DNA of 64,000 nt from an uncultured cyanobacterium. GTDB lineage: Bacteria > Cyanobacteriota > Cyanobacteriia > Cyanobacteriales > CAWCAG01. The stretch lies in contig CAWCAG010000005.1 of NCBI GenBank assembly GCA_963793425.1, forward strand, positions 1,504,001 to 1,568,000, given 5' to 3'. Made by a program: the position numbers and the translations under genes. The notes below the pieces were generated by a model. That model searched no databases and was not told the DNA's origin. It saw only the letters and a program-made list of their open reading frames with translations. Shown in pieces: positions 3,090 to 11,979 of this stretch (position 1 is its first letter; each line of letters opens with the position of its first letter).

Positions 3090-4223
3090 TTAGCTTTTAA
3101 CTAGATTATCTAAACCTTCTACTACTTTAGCCGAGATAATTTCATCTCCTGCCCTAAGTTGTTCCAATACTTCTTTCCCTTCTACTGTATAGCCAAAAAC
3201 TGCATAACGACCGTCTAAAAGATTTAAGCCAGCCGGGGCAAGGGCGGGTTCAAATAAGAAAAAGAAAAATTGAGAAGAGCCGCCATTGGGTTCATTACCA
3301 GGGCGTGCCATGCCTAATGCCCCATAAGCAGAAATAGGCAACACAGTTTCTTCGCGATATAAACCAAGTTCTTCTAAAGTATTACCATAGATAGGCTCTA
3401 ATTCACTTCTAATTTTAATTTCTAAAGGAATAGCTCGATATTCTCCTGTTTGAGGATCTATGTAACCTTCTTCTACTCCTTCTGGATCTCCTGTTTGCAG
3501 AATATAATTATCTTCAGCACGGATAAATGGTAAGCCGTTGTAAAAACCTTTTTCGACTAGATCAACAAAATTTCCGGCGGTGACTGGAGAGTTATAACCA
3601 TCTACCACTAAAACTAAGTTCCCTTTATTCGTCTCCATTTCTACGGTGGCACGACCTTTTAGTTGAGGCAAGTTGGCATATTCAGTAGGAACTTCAAAAG
3701 GAAATTCCTCAACCATAAACCGTTCTAAATCAGTTATTTGCGCTAATATTTCTCGCCGCAATGTCCAAACTTCTTCCTTATCCTGTGCATCCACAGCTTC
3801 ACGAAGTTGACTAACTTCATCTTTCATTTGAGCTAGTAAGGATTCTGCTTGGGGTTGATACTGATTAGGAATACTCGCTAAAATTTTGTCGCTACTCCCT
3901 AAATATCGGGAAGCTTCTTTCACATCTCGACTAATAGGACTCCAACGCTTGCCTCGTAACTCATTGGCAATATCTTCTAAACTCTGTTGTAATTTCCTAA
4001 TGGTGTTGTTTTCAATCGGTAAGGCATAGCGCAAAATGGCTGTAGGGTCAGTAATGGCATTGCCTTGGGGCAATCTACTCTGGCGGTAAGAAGTTTCCTC
4101 CTCACCAAAATCCCACCAAGCACCACTTAATCCCACTGACAGACTAATCATAAGGAGTGCAACTATACTGGTTTTAAGCAAACCTTGCCATTGCTTACTT
4201 AAAAAAGTTTCTCTAAGTTTCAT
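3090..4223 (-). CDS. Cyclophilin-type peptidyl-prolyl isomerase (CYP38/TLP40-like)
   Basis: Signal peptide, helical bundle (LRYALPI), cyclophilin domain (PVTAGNFVDLV, QTGDP, GSSQFFFFL, LDGRYAVFGY). Confidence 0.9.
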   Translation of the reverse strand: MKLRETFLSKQWQGLLKTSIVALLMISLSVGLSGAWWDFGEEETSYRQSRLPQGNAITDPTAILRYALPIENNTIRKLQQSLEDIANELRGKRWSPISRDVKEASRYLGSSDKILASIPNQYQPQAESLLAQMKDEVSQLREAVDAQDKEEVWTLRREILAQITDLERFMVEEFPFEVPTEYANLPQLKGRATVEMETNKGNLVLVVDGYNSPVTAGNFVDLVEKGFYNGLPFIRAEDNYILQTGDPEGVEEGYIDPQTGEYRAIPLEIKIRSELEPIYGNTLEELGLYREETVLPISAYGALGMARPGNEPNGGSSQFFFFLFEPALAPAGLNLLDGRYAVFGYTVEGKEVLEQLRAGDEIISAKVVEGLDNLVKS

Positions 4224-4312
4224 AAATCTCTAAGTTATTAATTTAATGCAGATTGACTACCAGTTTTTATCTTCCCATTTGGGGAAGAGTGGGACAAGGG
4301 GAAATAGAAAAG

Positions 4313-5488
4313 TCAAGACTTAGAGAATAAAATACATCCTCCCGTCAGAGCGATAGCCGCAGCCGTATAAAAAACCCAGGTTATGTCTCCAATACCAAGA
4401 ATTGGTCCCAAGAGGATGGGACTAAGAAATTGACCAAAAAAACTGGCTCCGGTTCCTGTGGCGAGGACGCTTCCTTGTAGTTTTTGGGGTGCTAAATTGG
4501 CTAAGGAGTTGTAGATATTGGGAATAACTAATCCTAGCCCCACACCAAAAAAGATCGCTACAAGAAGTAGAGCAAGATAATCTTGAAACAGAGGAATAAT
4601 TGCTAACATTGCTGCCATGAGGGTAAAACCTATCGCAGTAGAGCGATCGCGACCAATTTTTTGAGCAAGGGGTTGAACACCAAAAGCGGAGATTAAAGCC
4701 GCACCAAGTGATTCACAAGCTAGCAACAAGCCATTTAAAGTGGGGGTAGTATTAATGGTTTGTTTGAGGTAAAGGGGCAAATAAATAAACACAGCATACA
4801 TAACTATTGAAGCCAGACATAAACCTACTAAAAGTCGCCAAAAAGCTGGGTGGCGCAATAGCTTCTTGAGAGTGCTACCAACATCAGGTACAGCATGAGT
4901 TTTGCTATGGCTACGGGATTCAGTTGGGGCAATAATCCAAGCTATTAGAAAAGCTAAAGGCAAACCGACTCCATATAAACAAAAAGCCCAGCGCCAGTTC
5001 CATGAGCCTAACCAACCCCCCAGTAAAGGGCAAATAATGCCAGCAATGGTTAAAGTGGCTGTGGCATAACCAATCGCTTGGGAACGTGCTTCCCCTTCAT
5101 ATTCTTGCCCCAACCAACCCAAACTACCAGCAGCAATACCGCCGCTGGCAGCACCTAACAAGGCTCTTGTCGCTAGTAAAGGCCAAAAGTCTGTCATGAA
5201 AGCACCTGCACAGCCGAAAATGCTGTAGAGAGCTAAAGAAGGGATTAACACTTTAGAAGGAGTGAGTTGATCGGTTAATATCCCCAAGGGCAAACAGAAT
5301 AAAGCCAGGGTTAGGCAATGAATACTTACTAAATTCCCCACTAAAATGGGGTTGAGATTTAACTGTTGTGCTAATTCTGGCAAGATTGGTGCTAATACTC
5401 CTCCTGCCATAGTAATCAACGAACCAGCCAGCAAGACTAAAGGCAGTCTTAAATTTTCCTGCCCCATGATTTTGCGATCGCTTAACAT
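4313..5488 (-). CDS. MFS transporter (drug/metabolite exporter-like)
   Basis: About 12 hydrophobic segments; RALLG, PLLGGWL..WNWRWAF motifs; divergent from the Rieske gene. Confidence 0.9.
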   Translation of the reverse strand: MLSDRKIMGQENLRLPLVLLAGSLITMAGGVLAPILPELAQQLNLNPILVGNLVSIHCLTLALFCLPLGILTDQLTPSKVLIPSLALYSIFGCAGAFMTDFWPLLATRALLGAASGGIAAGSLGWLGQEYEGEARSQAIGYATATLTIAGIICPLLGGWLGSWNWRWAFCLYGVGLPLAFLIAWIIAPTESRSHSKTHAVPDVGSTLKKLLRHPAFWRLLVGLCLASIVMYAVFIYLPLYLKQTINTTPTLNGLLLACESLGAALISAFGVQPLAQKIGRDRSTAIGFTLMAAMLAIIPLFQDYLALLLVAIFFGVGLGLVIPNIYNSLANLAPQKLQGSVLATGTGASFFGQFLSPILLGPILGIGDITWVFYTAAAIALTGGCILFSKS

Positions 5489-5582
5489 CTAAGATTCTCG
5501 AAAAAATAAACAGCTAAATATAAAAACAATGATCAAACTTATTTTCTAGTAAAAGCCCTAGATTATCGCTTTTCGCTATATT

Positions 5583-5598
5583 TGTGACAGTTATTACA
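5583..5598. promoter_or_regulatory. Possible CRP/NtcA-family operator in the MFS/Rieske divergent region
   Basis: TGTGA-cagtta-TTACA: one mismatch to TGTGA-N6-TCACA and one to GTA-N8-TAC. Confidence 0.3.
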
Positions 5599-5701
5599 TT
5601 GATGCGGGCCTAAACTTATTGGCTACGATAGTTGCTTGGTCTGGTATTATGCGACTCTAAATAAATTGTCACCAACTATTCTTTAAGATTAGGAGTTACG
5701 C

Positions 5702-6805
5702 ATGAAACTGGCTCCCACCTTACAAAGCCAGAATGTTCAGAATAGAGTCCGTGAAATTGGGATTAACCCCAACTACTGGTATCCTGTGGCTTGGAGTCAC
5801 GAACTTAAAGCCACAGAAATTTTTCGTGCTGTGATTTGGCAACAGGGAATCGCGGTTTATCGTGATGACCAAGGAAAAGTCCATGCCTTAGAAGATGCTT
5901 GTCCCCATAAAGGTGTAGCCCTTCATAATGGGGCTGTCCATGGTAATAACCTTGTTTGCCCCTATCATGGTTGGGAATTTGCTGAAGACGGGAAATGTGT
6001 AAAAATTCCTTACTTGCCCCCAGAACAAAAATTGCCCTGCGCCCAAGCCCGTAGCTATCCAACTTTAGACAAATATGGCATTATTTGGGTTTTTCCTGGG
6101 GAAGCTAGTTTAGCTGCCCAATCTCAGCCCCCAGAAGTGCCAGAGTATAGTGATCCTCAATTAATTGCAATTCCTATACCAGCTCATTTCCAAGCCCATT
6201 TTTCCATCTGTAATGAGAATACTATGGATGTGTTCCATGGTTTCTTGCACCAGGATATACAAGGTTGGTTTGATCCTGTCTTACTTAATTTGCAACAAAG
6301 TTCAGGGGAAGTAGAGGCCGATTATCAAATTTCTTATCGCGGCTTTCTCTCCAAAATTCTCGGACTGAGTAACCAAGCTAATCAAGTTACCACCAAAAAT
6401 ATCTCTATTCGTTATCGTTATCCCCACTACTACAGTTCCTTAGAAGGGGTTTCTTCTATGTATCTAATGCGTTTACCTGTGGGGCCACAAGAAACCCGTT
6501 CCTTTTCCCTATTATTTTTAAAGTTGCCCTTACCTCAATGGCTAATTGCTAAATTCAAACCCTTACTCAGTAAATTTATTTGGCGCTTTTTACTTAAAAA
6601 ATTCCTGCTTCAAGATATTGCCATGATTGAAAGCGAACAAAAAAACTATCTTGCTAATCCCCAAAGAAAATATGTAGAAATAAATCCTGCTATTATTGCT
6701 CTTCAACGGCTAATTATCCGGCAATATGAAAAATTTGTGCAACAATCTAGTCAATCGTCTCCTAATCTCAATGGGAATAGTAATGACTCGGTATCTTTAA
6801 ACTGA
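5702..6805 (+). CDS. Rieske non-heme iron oxygenase (alpha subunit)
   Basis: CPHKG...CPYHGW Rieske motif; ENTMDVFHGFLH mononuclear iron motif; distal Asp in LLQDIAMIE. Confidence 0.9.
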   Translation: MKLAPTLQSQNVQNRVREIGINPNYWYPVAWSHELKATEIFRAVIWQQGIAVYRDDQGKVHALEDACPHKGVALHNGAVHGNNLVCPYHGWEFAEDGKCVKIPYLPPEQKLPCAQARSYPTLDKYGIIWVFPGEASLAAQSQPPEVPEYSDPQLIAIPIPAHFQAHFSICNENTMDVFHGFLHQDIQGWFDPVLLNLQQSSGEVEADYQISYRGFLSKILGLSNQANQVTTKNISIRYRYPHYYSSLEGVSSMYLMRLPVGPQETRSFSLLFLKLPLPQWLIAKFKPLLSKFIWRFLLKKFLLQDIAMIESEQKNYLANPQRKYVEINPAIIALQRLIIRQYEKFVQQSSQSSPNLNGNSNDSVSLN

Positions 6806-6963
6806 GTATAATGCTCAGAAACTTGCTCTTGGGCAAATCAGTCTTAGAGATAGTCATTTGTTAGTTCTTGGATGTAGAGGAGAAATTAGGTGCTAGAACC
6901 CGCAGCATCATTGCAAGCAGAGCCAAGAGGCTATTTAGGAAAAGGTCACCAGGAGTAGAAGAA

Positions 6964-8253
6964 GTGCAAGTTGTCAAAGATTATATGCAAGGCCTCCATG
7001 AAAGTGGGCTTTATCCCGATAAATTTATCTGCCATCACAAAAAAGGTAACTTAGTTGAAATTGAAGAAGAAAAGAGCGGTAAATTAAGGACGGTTTTGAC
7101 CTTCTGTACTAATGATGTTCTGGGTTTAGTACAATCAGAAGCTGTTAGGCAAGCGGCCGTTGATGCCATTTATCAATACGGCACTTCCAATAGTTCTTGT
7201 TCTGTATTGAGTGGTCGTATTGACCTCCACAGACAGCTAGAACAGGAAATTTCTGATTTTAAACATCTACCCCATACCCACCTGTTTCTCAATGCTTGGA
7301 TGGCAATGCAAGCGTTGATGGATGGATTTTGTCATCTGGCTGCTAGGGTTCCTGGTTTTAAACATACCCGCGAAACTCTGATTCTTACCGATGTACTTAA
7401 CCACGGTTGCATCGTTTCTGCTGTAATTAATGCCGGAACTCGTTCTGGTAAGGTATATGGTCATAGCCCCAGGGTTAGGGTTAAGCCCTATCGTCATTGT
7501 GATGTACAAGATTTAGCCCGGAAACTACGTCGCTATGCCCGTCCTGATGATCGTATTTTGGTAGTTTCTGATGCGGTATTTTCTATGGATGGAGATATCG
7601 CCCCCTTACCGGAGATGATTGAGGTTTTAGCTGATTATCCTGGTAGTGTGATTGTCATGGATGAGGCACACGCTAGCGGGGCAATTGGAGCTACGGGAAG
7701 GGGCATTTATGAGCATTTTGGTATCTTACCCCAACAGGTTATCGAAAAAGGGGTAGTACCTTTAATCATGACGACTTTTTCTAAGTTTGCGGCTTCGGCT
7801 GGGGCCGCTATTAGTAGTCATGTTAGTGAATTGATTGATTTGTTAGATGTTTGCCCTACTTCCATTGGTACTATTTCCTTGCCACCACCCACAACAGCAG
7901 CAGCTTTAGCAAGTATTCGTCAAGTCCGTTCCCAACCCCAACTTGTGGCTACCCTCCAGGAAAATACCCGTTACTTGCGATCTCATCTGTTGGAAAATGA
8001 TTTTGCGGCCATCGGAGAAACTAATGTGATTCCTGTCCTCCTGCCAGAAGAATTAAATCCCAAAGAATTTGCCACCCATCTCATGGAAAAACATGGTATT
8101 TGGGTATCTCCCATTTGGTTTATTGCCAAGCCTCGCCTCCGGATCACCGCTAATGCCCTCCATACCCAAGAAGAAATGGATCGTTTAGTAGAAGCTTTAA
8201 TTGCTACTAGAGAAGCGTTGTATAAACCGACAGCTAGAACAATCAGTGCCTAA
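6964..8253 (+). CDS. PLP-dependent alpha-oxoamine synthase family enzyme (serine palmitoyltransferase/BioF-like, divergent)
   Basis: TNDVLGL, DVLNH, FSMDGD, DEAH, TTFSK (PLP lysine), LRIT. Start placed at GTG 6964 with AGGAG at 6951-6955; the track starts at TTG 6868. Confidence 0.85.
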   Translation: MQVVKDYMQGLHESGLYPDKFICHHKKGNLVEIEEEKSGKLRTVLTFCTNDVLGLVQSEAVRQAAVDAIYQYGTSNSSCSVLSGRIDLHRQLEQEISDFKHLPHTHLFLNAWMAMQALMDGFCHLAARVPGFKHTRETLILTDVLNHGCIVSAVINAGTRSGKVYGHSPRVRVKPYRHCDVQDLARKLRRYARPDDRILVVSDAVFSMDGDIAPLPEMIEVLADYPGSVIVMDEAHASGAIGATGRGIYEHFGILPQQVIEKGVVPLIMTTFSKFAASAGAAISSHVSELIDLLDVCPTSIGTISLPPPTTAAALASIRQVRSQPQLVATLQENTRYLRSHLLENDFAAIGETNVIPVLLPEELNPKEFATHLMEKHGIWVSPIWFIAKPRLRITANALHTQEEMDRLVEALIATREALYKPTARTISA

Positions 8254-8265
8254 TAAAAATCCAGG

Positions 8266-9402
8266 ATGAGCGAAACAAATTTCAAAATTAAAGCTGTTGT
8301 TAACCCAGCAGACAGAGAAATGTTCTTAGATGTACCAGCTAGGGTGTATGCAAATGACCCTAACTGGGTTCCTCCTATTCGTAGCCGTATTGCCAAGCAG
8401 TTAGCTTTGTCGGTTAGTAATCCTTTTTTGGAGTATGGCAAATTTCAACAATTTATTGCTTTGAGGGAGGGGAAACCTGTCGGCAGAATTGTTGCGGCTA
8501 TTAACAACCGGTTAATAGAAAAGACAGGGGAATCAATTGGTTTATTTGGTTACTTTGAATGTATTGAAGAATTTCCTATTGCCCAAGGATTATTAGATGT
8601 TGCGGCACAGTGGTTGGGCGATCGCAATATAAACCTACTCAGGGGGCCAATTGATTTATCTACTCACAATAACTGTTTGTGCTTAATTGAAGGGTTTGAT
8701 TCTCCTCCTTTAATCATGACAGCTTATAACCCCGCCTATTACCCCCAGTTTTTTGAACAAGCAGGTTTACATAAAGCCAAGGATGCCTATGCCTACAATA
8801 TGCCTTTAGAACAGTTCGTACCGGAAAAGTACGTCAAGTCCTATCGCATTGCTTGTAAGTCAGGTGTAAACTTCCGCCCTGTTCATACCAAAGGGGCAGA
8901 ATTTGAACAGGATTGCCGTAGTATCTATCAATTATTCACTAAAACTTTTGCTGATAACTGGAGTTCTACCCCCCGTAGCGAGGAAGAATTTTTTGAAGAA
9001 GCAAAGGAGTTACAACCGTTAATAGACCCAGATATTTTTCCAATCGCTGAATATGAAGGGGAAATGGTAGGTTTTCTCATGGCTATACCAGATTATAATA
9101 TTCCCCTCAAACAAGTTAATGGCAAGCTCAATTGGCTTGGTATTCTCAAATTTCTTTGGTATCGTCGTCAAATTGATCAAGCGAGGGTAATTGTTATTTG
9201 TTCTTTACCAGAACATCGTCGTAAGCTAATTCCTCTAGCTTTGATGTATTTGTCTTTGCAGGGGGGCATAAAAAAAGGGAAGCCTTACAAACAAACAGAT
9301 TCATCTTGGGTTTGGGAAGATAATCTTCCTTCTCGCAAGATAATTGAAGCCAGTGGCAGTTATTTATATAAGAAGTATCGTATGTATGAAAAGGAATTAT
9401 AA
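8266..9402 (+). CDS. Double-GNAT protein of the YghO / bacterial ceramide synthase (bCerS) family
   Basis: Y.NDPNWVPP, NPF, GRIVA, GLFGYFECI, LRGP, EGFD.PP.IM..YNP.YY, G..KAKD, F.DNW, IPDYN, SWVWEDN motifs; starts 12 nt after the SPT-like gene. Confidence 0.8.
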   Translation: MSETNFKIKAVVNPADREMFLDVPARVYANDPNWVPPIRSRIAKQLALSVSNPFLEYGKFQQFIALREGKPVGRIVAAINNRLIEKTGESIGLFGYFECIEEFPIAQGLLDVAAQWLGDRNINLLRGPIDLSTHNNCLCLIEGFDSPPLIMTAYNPAYYPQFFEQAGLHKAKDAYAYNMPLEQFVPEKYVKSYRIACKSGVNFRPVHTKGAEFEQDCRSIYQLFTKTFADNWSSTPRSEEEFFEEAKELQPLIDPDIFPIAEYEGEMVGFLMAIPDYNIPLKQVNGKLNWLGILKFLWYRRQIDQARVIVICSLPEHRRKLIPLALMYLSLQGGIKKGKPYKQTDSSWVWEDNLPSRKIIEASGSYLYKKYRMYEKEL

Positions 9403-9426
9403 GCTAAAACGCCTTTATTGATACCA

Positions 9427-9458
9427 AATGTTTAATGTTTAATGTTTAATGATCAATG
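9427..9458. repeat. Heptameric STRR tract (AATGTTT)3 plus degenerate copies
   Basis: Read directly. Confidence 0.8.
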
Positions 9459-9464
9459 AGATAA

Positions 9465-10781
9465 GTGTTTATTGTTCTTAAATTATTAAGATTACTTTTA
9501 GCTATTGCTATTGTTGCCCTTGCCTTACTTTATAGAATGCCTTTTTGGGCAAATTGGCGTAGTGATTCTTTTTTGGGAATAGTTATAGTTGGTTTGGCGT
9601 TGCTTGTTTCAGAAACTTTTGCTTATCGGCGCAACTATACTATCACAAGAACTATTCTCAGTTCTGCCATTTTACTAGTAACAAGTTTGAGCTTGTGCCT
9701 CACTTTGGGGATAGAAACTAAATTTTATTTTGTCAAGCAAGCAGTATTAAATACACCAACATCACGCTTAGAATCTTTAGGAAAACATTTTGTAGTTGGC
9801 TATAGAGACTTAGGAGAAGTTAAGCAATTAGTTGAGAAAAAAGCCGTTAGTGGTATTTTCCTGACTAGCAGAAATATCAAAGGCAGAACTAAAGAAGCTA
9901 TTGCCCAAGAAATAAAAACCTTACAAACTATACGTCAAAAGCAAGGTTTATCTCCTTTATGGGTAGCAGTAGATCAAGAAGGAGGAATTGTTTCTCGTTT
10001 ATCTCCTCCTTTAACTCTTTTACCACCTTTAGCTGAAGTTGTCGAAAATACTAAAAATATTGCTGAGCGAGAAACTGAAGTAATTAAATATGCCACCATT
10101 CATGGTCAGGAATTAGCTGCTTTAGGAGTTAATCTTAACTTTGCTCCGGTAGTGGATCTCAACTATGGCATAATTAATCCTCAAGATAAATATTCCCGCA
10201 TTTATCAACGTGCGATCGCTCTTGATGAAAAAACAGTTAGTCAAGTAGCTTTGTGGTACTGTCAAACCTTAGAAGAATTTCAAGTTAGTTGCACTCTCAA
10301 GCATTTTCCTGGCTTAGGAAGTATTGCCGTAGATACTCATTTAAACAACGCAGAATTAACAACCACGGTAGAAAAATTAACTCAGCAAGATTGGCTTCCT
10401 TTTCAGGAAGTTGCCAGCAAATCTTCTGCTTTCACGATGTTAGGTCATGTCAAATTAACCGCAGTAGATTCTGAAAATCCTGTTTCTTTTTCCGAGAAAG
10501 TTGTTAAAGGTATAATTAGGGAAAAGTGGCAAAATCAGGGTATCTTAATCACAGATGATTTTAGTATGAATCCTGTTTCTCTTAGTCCGGATGGGGTAGA
10601 AGGTGCAACGCTTAAAGCGATTAATGGGGGAGTGGATTTAATTTTAATTTCTTTTGATCAAGATTTATTTTATCCGGCTATATTAGGTTTATTAAAAGCT
10701 CAAAAAGTAGGGGAACTAGAAAAATCAATGTTGAAAATAAGCAATCAAAGACTAACTAAAAATCAACCAAATAAATTTTAA
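9465..10781 (+). CDS. Membrane-anchored GH3 glycoside hydrolase (NagZ-like beta-N-acetylhexosaminidase)
   Basis: Three N-terminal hydrophobic segments; VDQEGG.V.RL, NFAPVVD, KHFPGLGxxxxDTH, ITDDFSM. Confidence 0.85.
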   Translation: MFIVLKLLRLLLAIAIVALALLYRMPFWANWRSDSFLGIVIVGLALLVSETFAYRRNYTITRTILSSAILLVTSLSLCLTLGIETKFYFVKQAVLNTPTSRLESLGKHFVVGYRDLGEVKQLVEKKAVSGIFLTSRNIKGRTKEAIAQEIKTLQTIRQKQGLSPLWVAVDQEGGIVSRLSPPLTLLPPLAEVVENTKNIAERETEVIKYATIHGQELAALGVNLNFAPVVDLNYGIINPQDKYSRIYQRAIALDEKTVSQVALWYCQTLEEFQVSCTLKHFPGLGSIAVDTHLNNAELTTTVEKLTQQDWLPFQEVASKSSAFTMLGHVKLTAVDSENPVSFSEKVVKGIIREKWQNQGILITDDFSMNPVSLSPDGVEGATLKAINGGVDLILISFDQDLFYPAILGLLKAQKVGELEKSMLKISNQRLTKNQPNKF

Positions 10782-10824
10782 TTCTAACTCATTCCTTGTT
10801 ACTTAAATTCGGGGGAATAATTCC

Positions 10825-11979
10825 ATTTCTTTATTAGATCCTCGCCAAGACTTTGCCCTTTGGGGAGTATTATTATTAGCTGCAACCATCGGTCTGTGGG
10901 CAGAAAGAACTCCTTGGGGAAGTAAAATCTCTAGTCCGATTATCACCATCACTATTACTTTTTTATTATCTAATTTTAGAATTATCCCTGCTGAAGCGCC
11001 TTCTTATCAAGTAGTCTGGTCTTACTTCGTTCCTTTAGCAATTCCTTTACTACTATTTCAAGCTAACTTAATTTTTATTATGCGCCAAGTAGGGCCTATC
11101 CTAGTTGCTTACATTATTGGTGCATTAGGAACTATCTTAGGTACAGTAATTGCCTATTATTTGTTACCTTTAGGGGAATCTGGTTGGCAATTAGCGGCTG
11201 TTTTCTGTGCTACTTATATTGGTGGTTTCGTTAACTTTGCTGCCACAGCGGAAACAGTCGGTTTACGCTCTGAGGACTTACTAAGTGCTGGGGTAGCTGT
11301 TAATAACTTATTAATGAGTATCTATTTTATAATTCTGTTTGCTTTACCATCTGTTGGGTGGTTACAACGCTTCTTTCCTAGCCAAGTTAATTATAAAACC
11401 TCCTCTTCTATACCCTTAGATCCGGCACTATCTATAGATAGAGAAAGGTTGCGACTATTAGATATTAGTGAGTCTTTGGCTATCAGCGCGATTATCTGTG
11501 CTTTAGGTTATGGCTTAGCTAACAAATTGGGCATACCTAGCAGTAAAATTCTCTTCATAACTGTTTTAATTTTGATTTTAGCTACCTTGTTTCCCACCTA
11601 CATTGGCTCAATTAAAGGAGCAGAAAAAATCGGTGTCCTTTTGATGCAAGTTTTTTTCGCCACTATAGGAGCTAGCGCTAATATTGAAATAGTTCTGCGT
11701 GTCGGACCACTCCTTTTTGTTTTTGCTGCCATAATCCTTGCTGTTCATTTAATAGTTTTGTTATTAGGAGGTTGGCTACTCAAACTCAAGCTATCTGAAT
11801 TGGCTATAGCTTCAAACGCCAATACAGGTGGCCCCACAACAGCTGCGGCTATGGCTGCGGCAAAGAGATGGCCGAAGCTAGTGACTCCAGCTATTTTGTG
11901 CGGGACATTGGGTTACGGGACAGCAACTTTTATTGGTGTAGTTTTGGGAAAGTTTCTGGGGGGGAAAGAGTTATTTTGA
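10825..11979 (+). CDS. DUF819-family membrane protein (frame extends upstream of the track ORF; probable ATT start)
   Basis: ATYIGGFVNF, IASNANTGGPTTAAAMA, GTLGY motifs; in-frame upstream region encodes WAERTPWGSK, LSNFRIIP, VPLAIPLLLF. Confidence 0.75.
   Translation: MSLLDPRQDFALWGVLLLAATIGLWAERTPWGSKISSPIITITITFLLSNFRIIPAEAPSYQVVWSYFVPLAIPLLLFQANLIFIMRQVGPILVAYIIGALGTILGTVIAYYLLPLGESGWQLAAVFCATYIGGFVNFAATAETVGLRSEDLLSAGVAVNNLLMSIYFIILFALPSVGWLQRFFPSQVNYKTSSSIPLDPALSIDRERLRLLDISESLAISAIICALGYGLANKLGIPSSKILFITVLILILATLFPTYIGSIKGAEKIGVLLMQVFFATIGASANIEIVLRVGPLLFVFAAIILAVHLIVLLLGGWLLKLKLSELAIASNANTGGPTTAAAMAAAKRWPKLVTPAILCGTLGYGTATFIGVVLGKFLGGKELF

Follow-up and report, generated by a model that had tools for sequence, protein, structure and literature searches.

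Cyanobacterial membranes are taught as a matter of four glycerolipids, monogalactosyldiacylglycerol (MGDG), digalactosyldiacylglycerol (DGDG), sulfoquinovosyldiacylglycerol (SQDG) and phosphatidylglycerol (PG), and the question raised by the locus described here is whether some members of the phylum also make a lipid of the sphingolipid kind. The locus lies in a 64,000-nucleotide stretch from an uncultured cyanobacterium (contig CAWCAG010000005.1, C5 below; C5:1504001-1568000), to which we refer throughout as the window, and it comprises genes for a major facilitator superfamily (MFS) transporter, a Rieske oxygenase, an alpha-oxoamine synthase (AOS) and a tandem-GNAT acyltransferase related to E. 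coli YghO and the bacterial ceramide synthase bCerS. An original prediction, made from the letters of the stretch, had read these genes as a pathway to a ceramide-like lipid. Overall, we believe the best explanation of the window to be that a cyanobacterial system of six genes has four of them here, and that the other two, encoding an extended short-chain dehydrogenase/reductase (SDR) and a small FA_hydroxylase-family protein, are split off in this genome to sites outside the window on the same contig. We moderately favor the view that this system is a co-diverged variant of the pathway formed elsewhere by serine palmitoyltransferase (SPT, or Spt), bCerS and the reductase CerR, and that its product is a hydroxylated ceramide-like lipid; cyanobacteria that carry the system probably make a sphingolipid-like lipid of some sort. 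In the paper library searched, we found no paper on a cyanobacterial sphingolipid, or one linking cyanobacteria to bCerS, though the phylum lists of earlier surveys may include them. The six genes, and the intergenic region between the two divergent ones, are as follows.

4313-5488, minus strand: MFS transporter, DHA1-like (Pfam MFS_1, 7.3e-54).
5489-5701, no strand: intergenic stretch from which the MFS and Rieske genes diverge, presumed to hold their promoters.
5702-6805, plus strand: Rieske non-haem-iron oxygenase (Pfam Rieske, 7.1e-24; VanA_C, 1.6e-5).
6868-8253 as listed, plus strand: AOS of a divergent clade (Pfam Aminotran_1_2, 1.1e-32).
8266-9402, plus strand: YghO/bCerS-family tandem GNAT, 378 aa (Acetyltransf_1, 2.8e-4, 21.6 bits, residues 219-294).
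C5:1815659-1816609, about 250 kb beyond the window, among unrelated genes: extended SDR.
C5:1933028-1933501, beyond the window: this genome's own copy of the FA_hydroxylase-family protein (PF04116), located by orthologue search.

The open reading frame listing and the Pfam matches confirm the layout originally described, with co-oriented Rieske, AOS and GNAT genes, a divergent MFS gene and a gap of 12 nt (8254-8265) between the AOS stop and the GNAT start. The AOS probably begins at GTG 6964, giving a gene at 6964-8253 and a protein of 429 aa, because residue 33 of the listed frame is where its cyanobacterial orthologues begin, and this GTG follows an AGGAG.

The case for a common function is carried by co-occurrence and synteny. 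When each protein was searched against a sample of 301 genomes from the phylum, the AOS (70-80% identity), the GNAT (54-69%) and the SDR had orthologues in the identical 24 genomes, this one included; carriers thus make up about 8% of the sample. The set also occurs in culturable strains, candidate carriers being Allocoleopsis franciscana, Baaleninema simplex PCC 7105, Leptolyngbya sp. JSC-1 and Aliterella atlantica CENA595, the last with a complete MFS-Rieske-AOS-GNAT-SDR locus (L108). Two sets of loci, 20 orthologous ones and 59 cyanobacterial-type ones from named genomes, place the same genes side by side: the AOS adjoins the GNAT in 14/20 and 29/59 loci, respectively, and the SDR gene lies directly downstream of the GNAT in 12/20 and 37/59. 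In other phyla the first two enzymes are found as single Spt-GNAT fusion proteins (P0171, P0183 and P0194), in which the AOS half shares 39-43% identity with E. coli Spt. Because the profiles coincide, the genes adjoin and fusions exist, we conclude from these comparisons that AOS and GNAT are functionally tied; the synteny that the original prediction asked for is indeed present in other genomes.

The oxygenase and the transporter, also part of that prediction, belong to the same set. Rieske orthologues (56-64% identity) occur in 18/301 genomes and MFS orthologues (42-58% identity, E<=1e-78) in 22/301, all of them within the 24. The Rieske gene is close to the AOS in 11 of the 14 examined loci where AOS adjoins GNAT, and in all six genomes where the GNAT is unlinked it still lies at most about 2 kb from the AOS; the MFS gene stands divergently beside the cluster in 12/20 loci. 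The FA_hydroxylase-family protein, 160-190 aa across loci, was unforeseen. Its gene lies in 11/59 and 2/20 of the related loci, and an orthologue is found in 23 of the 24 carrier genomes, while outside them only more distant relatives (51-55%) appear, in five genomes. In three loci (L040:12101-13291, L041 and L042) an IS200/IS605-type TnpB gene sits between the Rieske and MFS genes.

The GNAT is 27% identical to E. coli K-12 YghO over 376 columns (BLASTP, E 7e-53) and 28% identical over its full length to the Sphingomonas protein labeled "aca" (E 2.5e-49), and comparison of its family alignment with YghO gives an hhalign probability of 100 (E 1.2e-83). An AlphaFold2 model built on 50 relatives (pLDDT 93.2, pTM 0.90) has tandem GNATs as its top Foldseek matches: 2wpw (E 1.5e-15, TM 0.59), 7q3a and MshD. 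A sequence search of the PDB returned no match at E<=1, and NCBIfam nothing meaningful even at E<=10. This protein is the sole YghO-type match in the genome. On the strength of alignment and fold we assign it to the YghO/bCerS family, and at that family level the "YghO-type double GNAT" of the original prediction holds. Here E. coli yghO stands in for Caulobacter bCerS by way of their published equivalence. According to the Fig. 9 legend of the 2022 paper PMC9386255, the aca genes (CC_1154, yghO ECD_02850 and Swit_3908) encode an acyl-CoA N-acyltransferase required for dihydroceramide synthesis, and PMC9386255 and PMC11087976 name the Spt, bCerS and CerR members as CC_1162, CC_1154 and CC_1164 in Caulobacter, spt, yghO and ECD_02852 in E. 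coli B, and Swit_3900, Swit_3908 and Swit_3897 in Sphingomonas.

Gene neighborhoods of the family point the same way. E. coli K-12 has no spt, but in E. coli FDN-24, whose yghO locus has not been interrupted by IS5, the neighbors of yghO carry the annotations fatty acyl-AMP ligase, NAD(P) oxidoreductase, acyl carrier protein (ACP), spt, lptG and lptF. The bCerS homologue is adjoined by a fatty acid desaturase gene in Sphingomonas and by a sterol desaturase family protein in Roseomonas, so that the oxygenase genes of the cyanobacterial clusters are placed as in known sphingolipid clusters, beside the acyltransferase. We propose that the cyanobacterial GNAT N-acylates the product of the AOS. The family as a whole is large, with 6563 representatives at E<=0.001, and in two of its members (P0157 and P0207) a PilZ domain is fused N-terminally, which hints at control of a ceramide-synthase-like enzyme by cyclic di-GMP in some bacteria.

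The relation of this system to ceramide synthesis can be followed through the three core enzymes together. Named genomes were scanned with P0130, the closest relative of the GNAT from outside the cyanobacteria. The scan covered the best 80 of 582 relatives, which are not a random sample, and these loci fall into two groups, with none between 41 and 49% identity to the window GNAT. At 50% identity or more there are 59 loci, mostly from cyanobacteria ranging from Coleofasciculus to Prochloron, with single metagenome-assembled genomes (MAGs) labeled Gammaproteobacteria, Azospirillaceae and Sericytochromatia and two uncultured bacteria; an AOS is found in 35/59 and an SDR in 44/59, and all 35 and all 44 are of the type seen here. 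The remaining 21 loci, at 31-40% identity, belong to Acidobacteriota, Zixibacteria, Thermodesulfobacteriota, Cytophagia and others; 15/21 have an AOS, always Spt-type, and 14/21 an SDR, 13 of these 14 being CerR-type. Given that pairing, the AOS-GNAT-SDR triad has diverged as a unit. Two of the MAGs, L140 and L146, labeled Gammaproteobacteria and Azospirillaceae, hold cyanobacterial-type AOS, GNAT and SDR genes at about 50% GNAT identity; either the genes were transferred from cyanobacteria or the contigs were wrongly binned.

Actinobacterial operons offer a further comparison. On Rubrobacter radiotolerans plasmid 1 and a plasmid of Streptomyces sp. NBC_01001, AOS, GNAT and SDR genes follow in the same order and overlap, a coupling as tight as in the cyanobacterial set. 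Their GNATs are 33% (Rubrobacter) and 30% (Streptomyces) identical to that of the window; the Rubrobacter AOS is the best match of the window AOS (31%, 165 bits) and the Streptomyces SDR that of the cyanobacterial SDR (31-34%, about 1e-30). Unlike the cyanobacterial set, these operons have neither Rieske nor MFS genes, and their AOS, which shares 37-39% identity with E. coli Spt, falls inside the SPT clade.

What, then, is the cyanobacterial AOS? It has its fold and catalytic residues in common with BioF, Kbl and 5-aminolevulinate synthase. It keeps the catalytic His, Asp, His, Lys and Arg within motifs NH, DEAH, TFSK and RLR, aligned with what we take to be positions 159, 231, 234, 265 and 390 of Sphingomonas SPT. 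Its highest score among curated models is to bioF (TIGR00858), 228.9 bits against a cut-off of 426.45, followed by Kbl at 195 against 460. The genome encodes a true BioF elsewhere (465.6 bits), so the AOS would be a paralogue with another job, and its setting of bCerS-type GNAT and SDR is foreign to biotin, threonine and haem metabolism. It is 26-32% identical to every AOS compared by BLASTP (165 bits to the Rubrobacter enzyme, 160 to its own BioF, 130 to Kbl, 117 to E. coli Spt); the scores of E. coli Spt with BioF and Kbl are 187-189 bits. Three changes set the cyanobacterial AOS apart: Val stands in place of the Tyr in N(N/D)Y(L/M)G, the G-S-R motif has lost its Arg, and four residues are missing from the loop that corresponds to PPATP in Sphingomonas SPT. 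These changes are found in each of the four cyanobacterial AOS shown in the alignment and in none of the 12 others. We read them as an altered substrate or partner and not as decay, because the clade remains 70-80% identical across orders, and we propose that this enzyme condenses an acyl thioester with an amino acid. An orphan AOS of a different setting (L094:4944-6179) occurs on conjugative Bacteroides/Phocaeicola plasmids of about 44 kb, beside a TetR regulator and a MAC/perforin-domain gene.

The SDR is the third member of the triad. It has an N-terminal NAD(P) site, with the motif VTGASGFTG, and matches PF01370 (Epimerase, 9.1e-41) and 3Beta_HSD (3e-35), but stays under the NCBIfam cut-offs for HpnA (195 bits, cut-off 368) and SdmB (134, cut-off 600) and under that for OleD (119 bits). 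It is 23-28% identical to the E. coli and Sphingomonas CerR proteins (E 1e-13 to 8e-17), and we regard it as a distant and weakly linked relative of CerR. The statement of the original prediction that the window has no CerR-like reductase or ACP holds: tblastn of the whole genome with four CerR-type queries and one AcpR query gave no match inside the window. The reductase that seemed to be missing is this SDR, present further along the contig.

The Rieske oxygenase carries the motifs CPH...CPYH and ENTMDVFHGFLH, read from its translation. Like SdmA, the 4-beta-methylsterol monooxygenase of Methylococcus, and like SxtT, SxtDIOX and DdmC, it combines a Rieske domain with a VanA_C-type catalytic domain and has no beta subunit; the last three are also its best PDB matches (about 1e-22). 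SdmA is its best NCBIfam model (NF052579), at 224.1 bits against a cut-off of 600. A second Rieske oxygenase in the genome (G000:C5:674129-675157) is 39% identical to it, and because this paralogous branch at about 40% identity is widespread, occurring in many cyanobacteria that do not have the cluster, the cluster Rieske would represent a cluster-specific branch. We propose that it is a lipid hydroxylase or desaturase. The MFS protein, whose best solved relative is NorA (9.5e-13), we propose as exporter or flippase of the product.

Taken together, these assignments suggest a pathway, each step of which we infer from homology, fold, co-occurrence and synteny. The AOS would condense a fatty acyl thioester with an amino acid, which may not be serine, to a long-chain alpha-amino ketone; the YghO/bCerS-type GNAT would N-acylate this ketone, and the SDR would then reduce the 3-keto group, an order of events that PMC11087976 also argues for in Caulobacter, where acylation is placed before reduction. 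The Rieske oxygenase and the small FA_hydroxylase-family protein might hydroxylate or desaturate the lipid, with electrons presumably drawn from ferredoxin, and the MFS protein would carry it across the cytoplasmic membrane. The enzyme classes (an AOS, a YghO-type tandem GNAT with full-length homologues at 27-33% identity, and an extended SDR) are those of the Spt-bCerS-CerR pathway. The accessories (Rieske oxygenase, small FA_hydroxylase-family protein and MFS) and the host, an oxygenic phototroph, set the cyanobacterial system apart from it. A more specific version of this proposal, which we put forward only tentatively, is that many filamentous cyanobacterial lineages have an undescribed class of membrane lipid: a sphingolipid analogue with a base built from a non-serine amino acid or an unusual acyl donor, N-acylated, oxygenated twice and flipped by the MFS protein.

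At the same time, several observations weigh against a co-diverged ceramide-type pathway. The AOS scores far below the SPT models (174.6 bits against a cut-off of 640 for NF047600, 162.4 against 500 for NF047599 and 117.7 against 670 for NF047603), and SPT-type queries from E. coli, Sphingomonas, Rubrobacter and Streptomyces score higher against the genome's BioF (160-220 bits) than against the AOS, their second match (89-133 bits). A maximum-likelihood tree of 20 rows groups the eight cyanobacterial AOS in a clade of their own (100/100), whose stem measures 2.98 changes per site and which lies outside the seven-row SPT clade (98/97). The approximately unbiased (AU) test does not reject a sister relation between the two (p 0.263), so in what is long-branch territory nesting within SPT is excluded, while the two may yet be kin. 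The enzyme that the original prediction called SPT-like is, to judge from model scores, tree and reciprocal matches, not SPT-like in any sense we tested beyond the shared fold.

The other members of the triad contribute further points of this kind. That prediction had hung part of its case on whether the GNAT belongs to the bCerS clade, and the answer comes out half-way. In a 39-row quick tree the cyanobacterial GNATs, with two environmental sequences, form a clade (support 99) that is sister to, and not nested in, the clade of E. coli, Sphingomonas, Roseomonas, Rubrobacter, Streptomyces and Spt-fused proteins (support 94; the root is not fixed), and the two clades are jointly split from family members that are not so linked (99). 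The family itself is not tied to one function, since YghO-family genes in ten distant, non-photosynthetic genomes of the phylum (L078-L087) have no adjoining AOS or SDR; these genomes have no cyanobacterial AOS orthologue, and some of their matches lie in open frames of 580-1247 aa. The SDR is the genome's best match for one of four CerR-type queries, the Streptomyces one; with those from E. coli, Sphingomonas and Rubrobacter other SDRs of the genome match better, and it is no reciprocal best match of CerR. Near the cluster there is no AcpR or AasR partner, and the cyanobacterial loci differ from proteobacterial sphingolipid clusters in having neither these nor the extra LptF/G. Finally, a transporter of the drug-exporter type suits a secreted small molecule as well as a membrane lipid.

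Because the MFS is of that type and the proteobacterial carrier-protein machinery is absent, the main rival explanation is a secreted signal: the same enzymes would produce an N-acyl amino-ketone or amino-alcohol that diffuses and serves as a signal or secondary metabolite, in the manner of CqsA and CAI-1, with the MFS protein as its exporter. We give this an appreciable, if minor, chance. A dedicated NorA-like DHA1 transporter in 22 of the 24 carrier genomes would fit it well, as would the remodeled substrate loops of the AOS, a Rieske oxygenase whose nearest solved relatives act on small molecules, and loci that, unlike the proteobacterial clusters, hold no LptF/G copies, ACP or acyl-ACP synthetase. 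Harder to accommodate is a membrane enzyme of the FA_hydroxylase family in nearly every carrier, together with what lies beside the SDR gene in the 59 loci, namely DevA-like ABC ATPases in 18/59 and FtsX/MacB-type permeases in 13/59. The GNAT's known relatives use long acyl chains, as is established for bCerS, and the conservation of the AOS across orders looks like that of a housekeeping envelope function and not of a strain-specific metabolite.

Nonetheless, a lipid product need not be an unusual one. The sequences might have diverged while the chemistry stayed that of an ordinary ceramide pathway, from L-serine and a palmitoyl thioester to dihydroceramide. The enzyme classes and gene order shared with the Rubrobacter and Streptomyces operons, the intact catalytic residues of the AOS and its permitted sister position to SPT are all compatible with this. 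We consider it unlikely, given the substitution of the active-site Tyr, the loss of the Arg, the shortened loop and the length of the stem of the AOS clade. A hopanoid or sterol product is decidedly improbable. In that case the Rieske oxygenase and SDR would form a pair like SdmA and SdmB, or HpnA, acting on a triterpenoid that the AOS and GNAT decorate; SdmA is the best model for the one and HpnA and SdmB are the best for the other, but the scores are far under their cut-offs, the SDR follows the AOS and GNAT (24/24 genomes) and not the Rieske oxygenase (18/24), and clustering of the 20 and of the 59 loci turned up no genes for hopanoids or sterols. That the genes are unrelated neighbors, a spare BioF or Kbl next to a generic acetyltransferase and a generic oxygenase, is very unlikely, to the point of being negligible: bioF and Kbl are the highest-scoring curated models for the AOS, but a true BioF exists elsewhere, and the AOS, GNAT and SDR share one profile across 301 genomes and are syntenic across named genera. 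The preferred reading therefore remains the co-diverged variant of the Spt-bCerS-CerR pathway. As to the original prediction of a ceramide-like pathway, the bCerS-family GNAT, its tie to the AOS and the membership of Rieske and MFS genes stand, while the SPT-like character of the AOS and the inclusion of a glycoside hydrolase do not.

That hydrolase is the gene downstream of the GNAT:

9465-10781, plus strand: membrane glycoside hydrolase family 3 protein (GH3), NagZ-like (Pfam Glyco_hydro_3, 3.9e-48).

It starts 62 nt downstream of the GNAT with no terminator-like site in the gap, is hydrophobic over about 90 residues at its N-terminus, as read from the translation, and scores 156 bits with a NagZ-like model whose cut-off is 207. 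It may be co-transcribed with the GNAT by accident. We rule it out as a cluster member, and with it the DUF819 gene that follows, because neither is found in any of the 20 or 59 related loci; both are chance neighbors. The DUF819 frame (window 10804-11979) has its listed ATG at 11080, yet its match to the Pfam profile starts only at position 79; upstream the frame stays open as far as about 10804, and its translation there would be plausible for a membrane protein, with no ATG, GTG or TTG in that part, so the gene has either a non-canonical start or is truncated. A different protein of similar name, an acyl-amido synthetase of the plant GH3 type with a weak likeness to OlsH (100 bits), is encoded on the far side of the MFS gene in 4/20 and 8/59 loci (for example L034:13397-15091 and L096:2378-4096); it was rejected as a core component, as this genome has no copy. 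The intergenic region 5489-5701 has no Rfam match at E<=0.1, and over 4200-11200 promoter-like sites are no commoner than in shuffled sequence (18 versus 17.1 +/- 4.9), nor are terminator-like sites.

A conserved gene set in about one in twelve sampled genomes, and in culturable strains, opens the question to direct tests by knock-out and lipidomics. Should the more specific reading, that of an undescribed membrane lipid, be true, a fifth class of lipid would stand beside MGDG, DGDG, SQDG and PG in oxygenic phototrophs. If the product is real, mats, crusts and sediments would gain a new candidate biomarker, and, because all three enzymes diverged together, the cyanobacterial set would represent a natural experiment in the substrate re-tuning of the Spt-bCerS-CerR triad.

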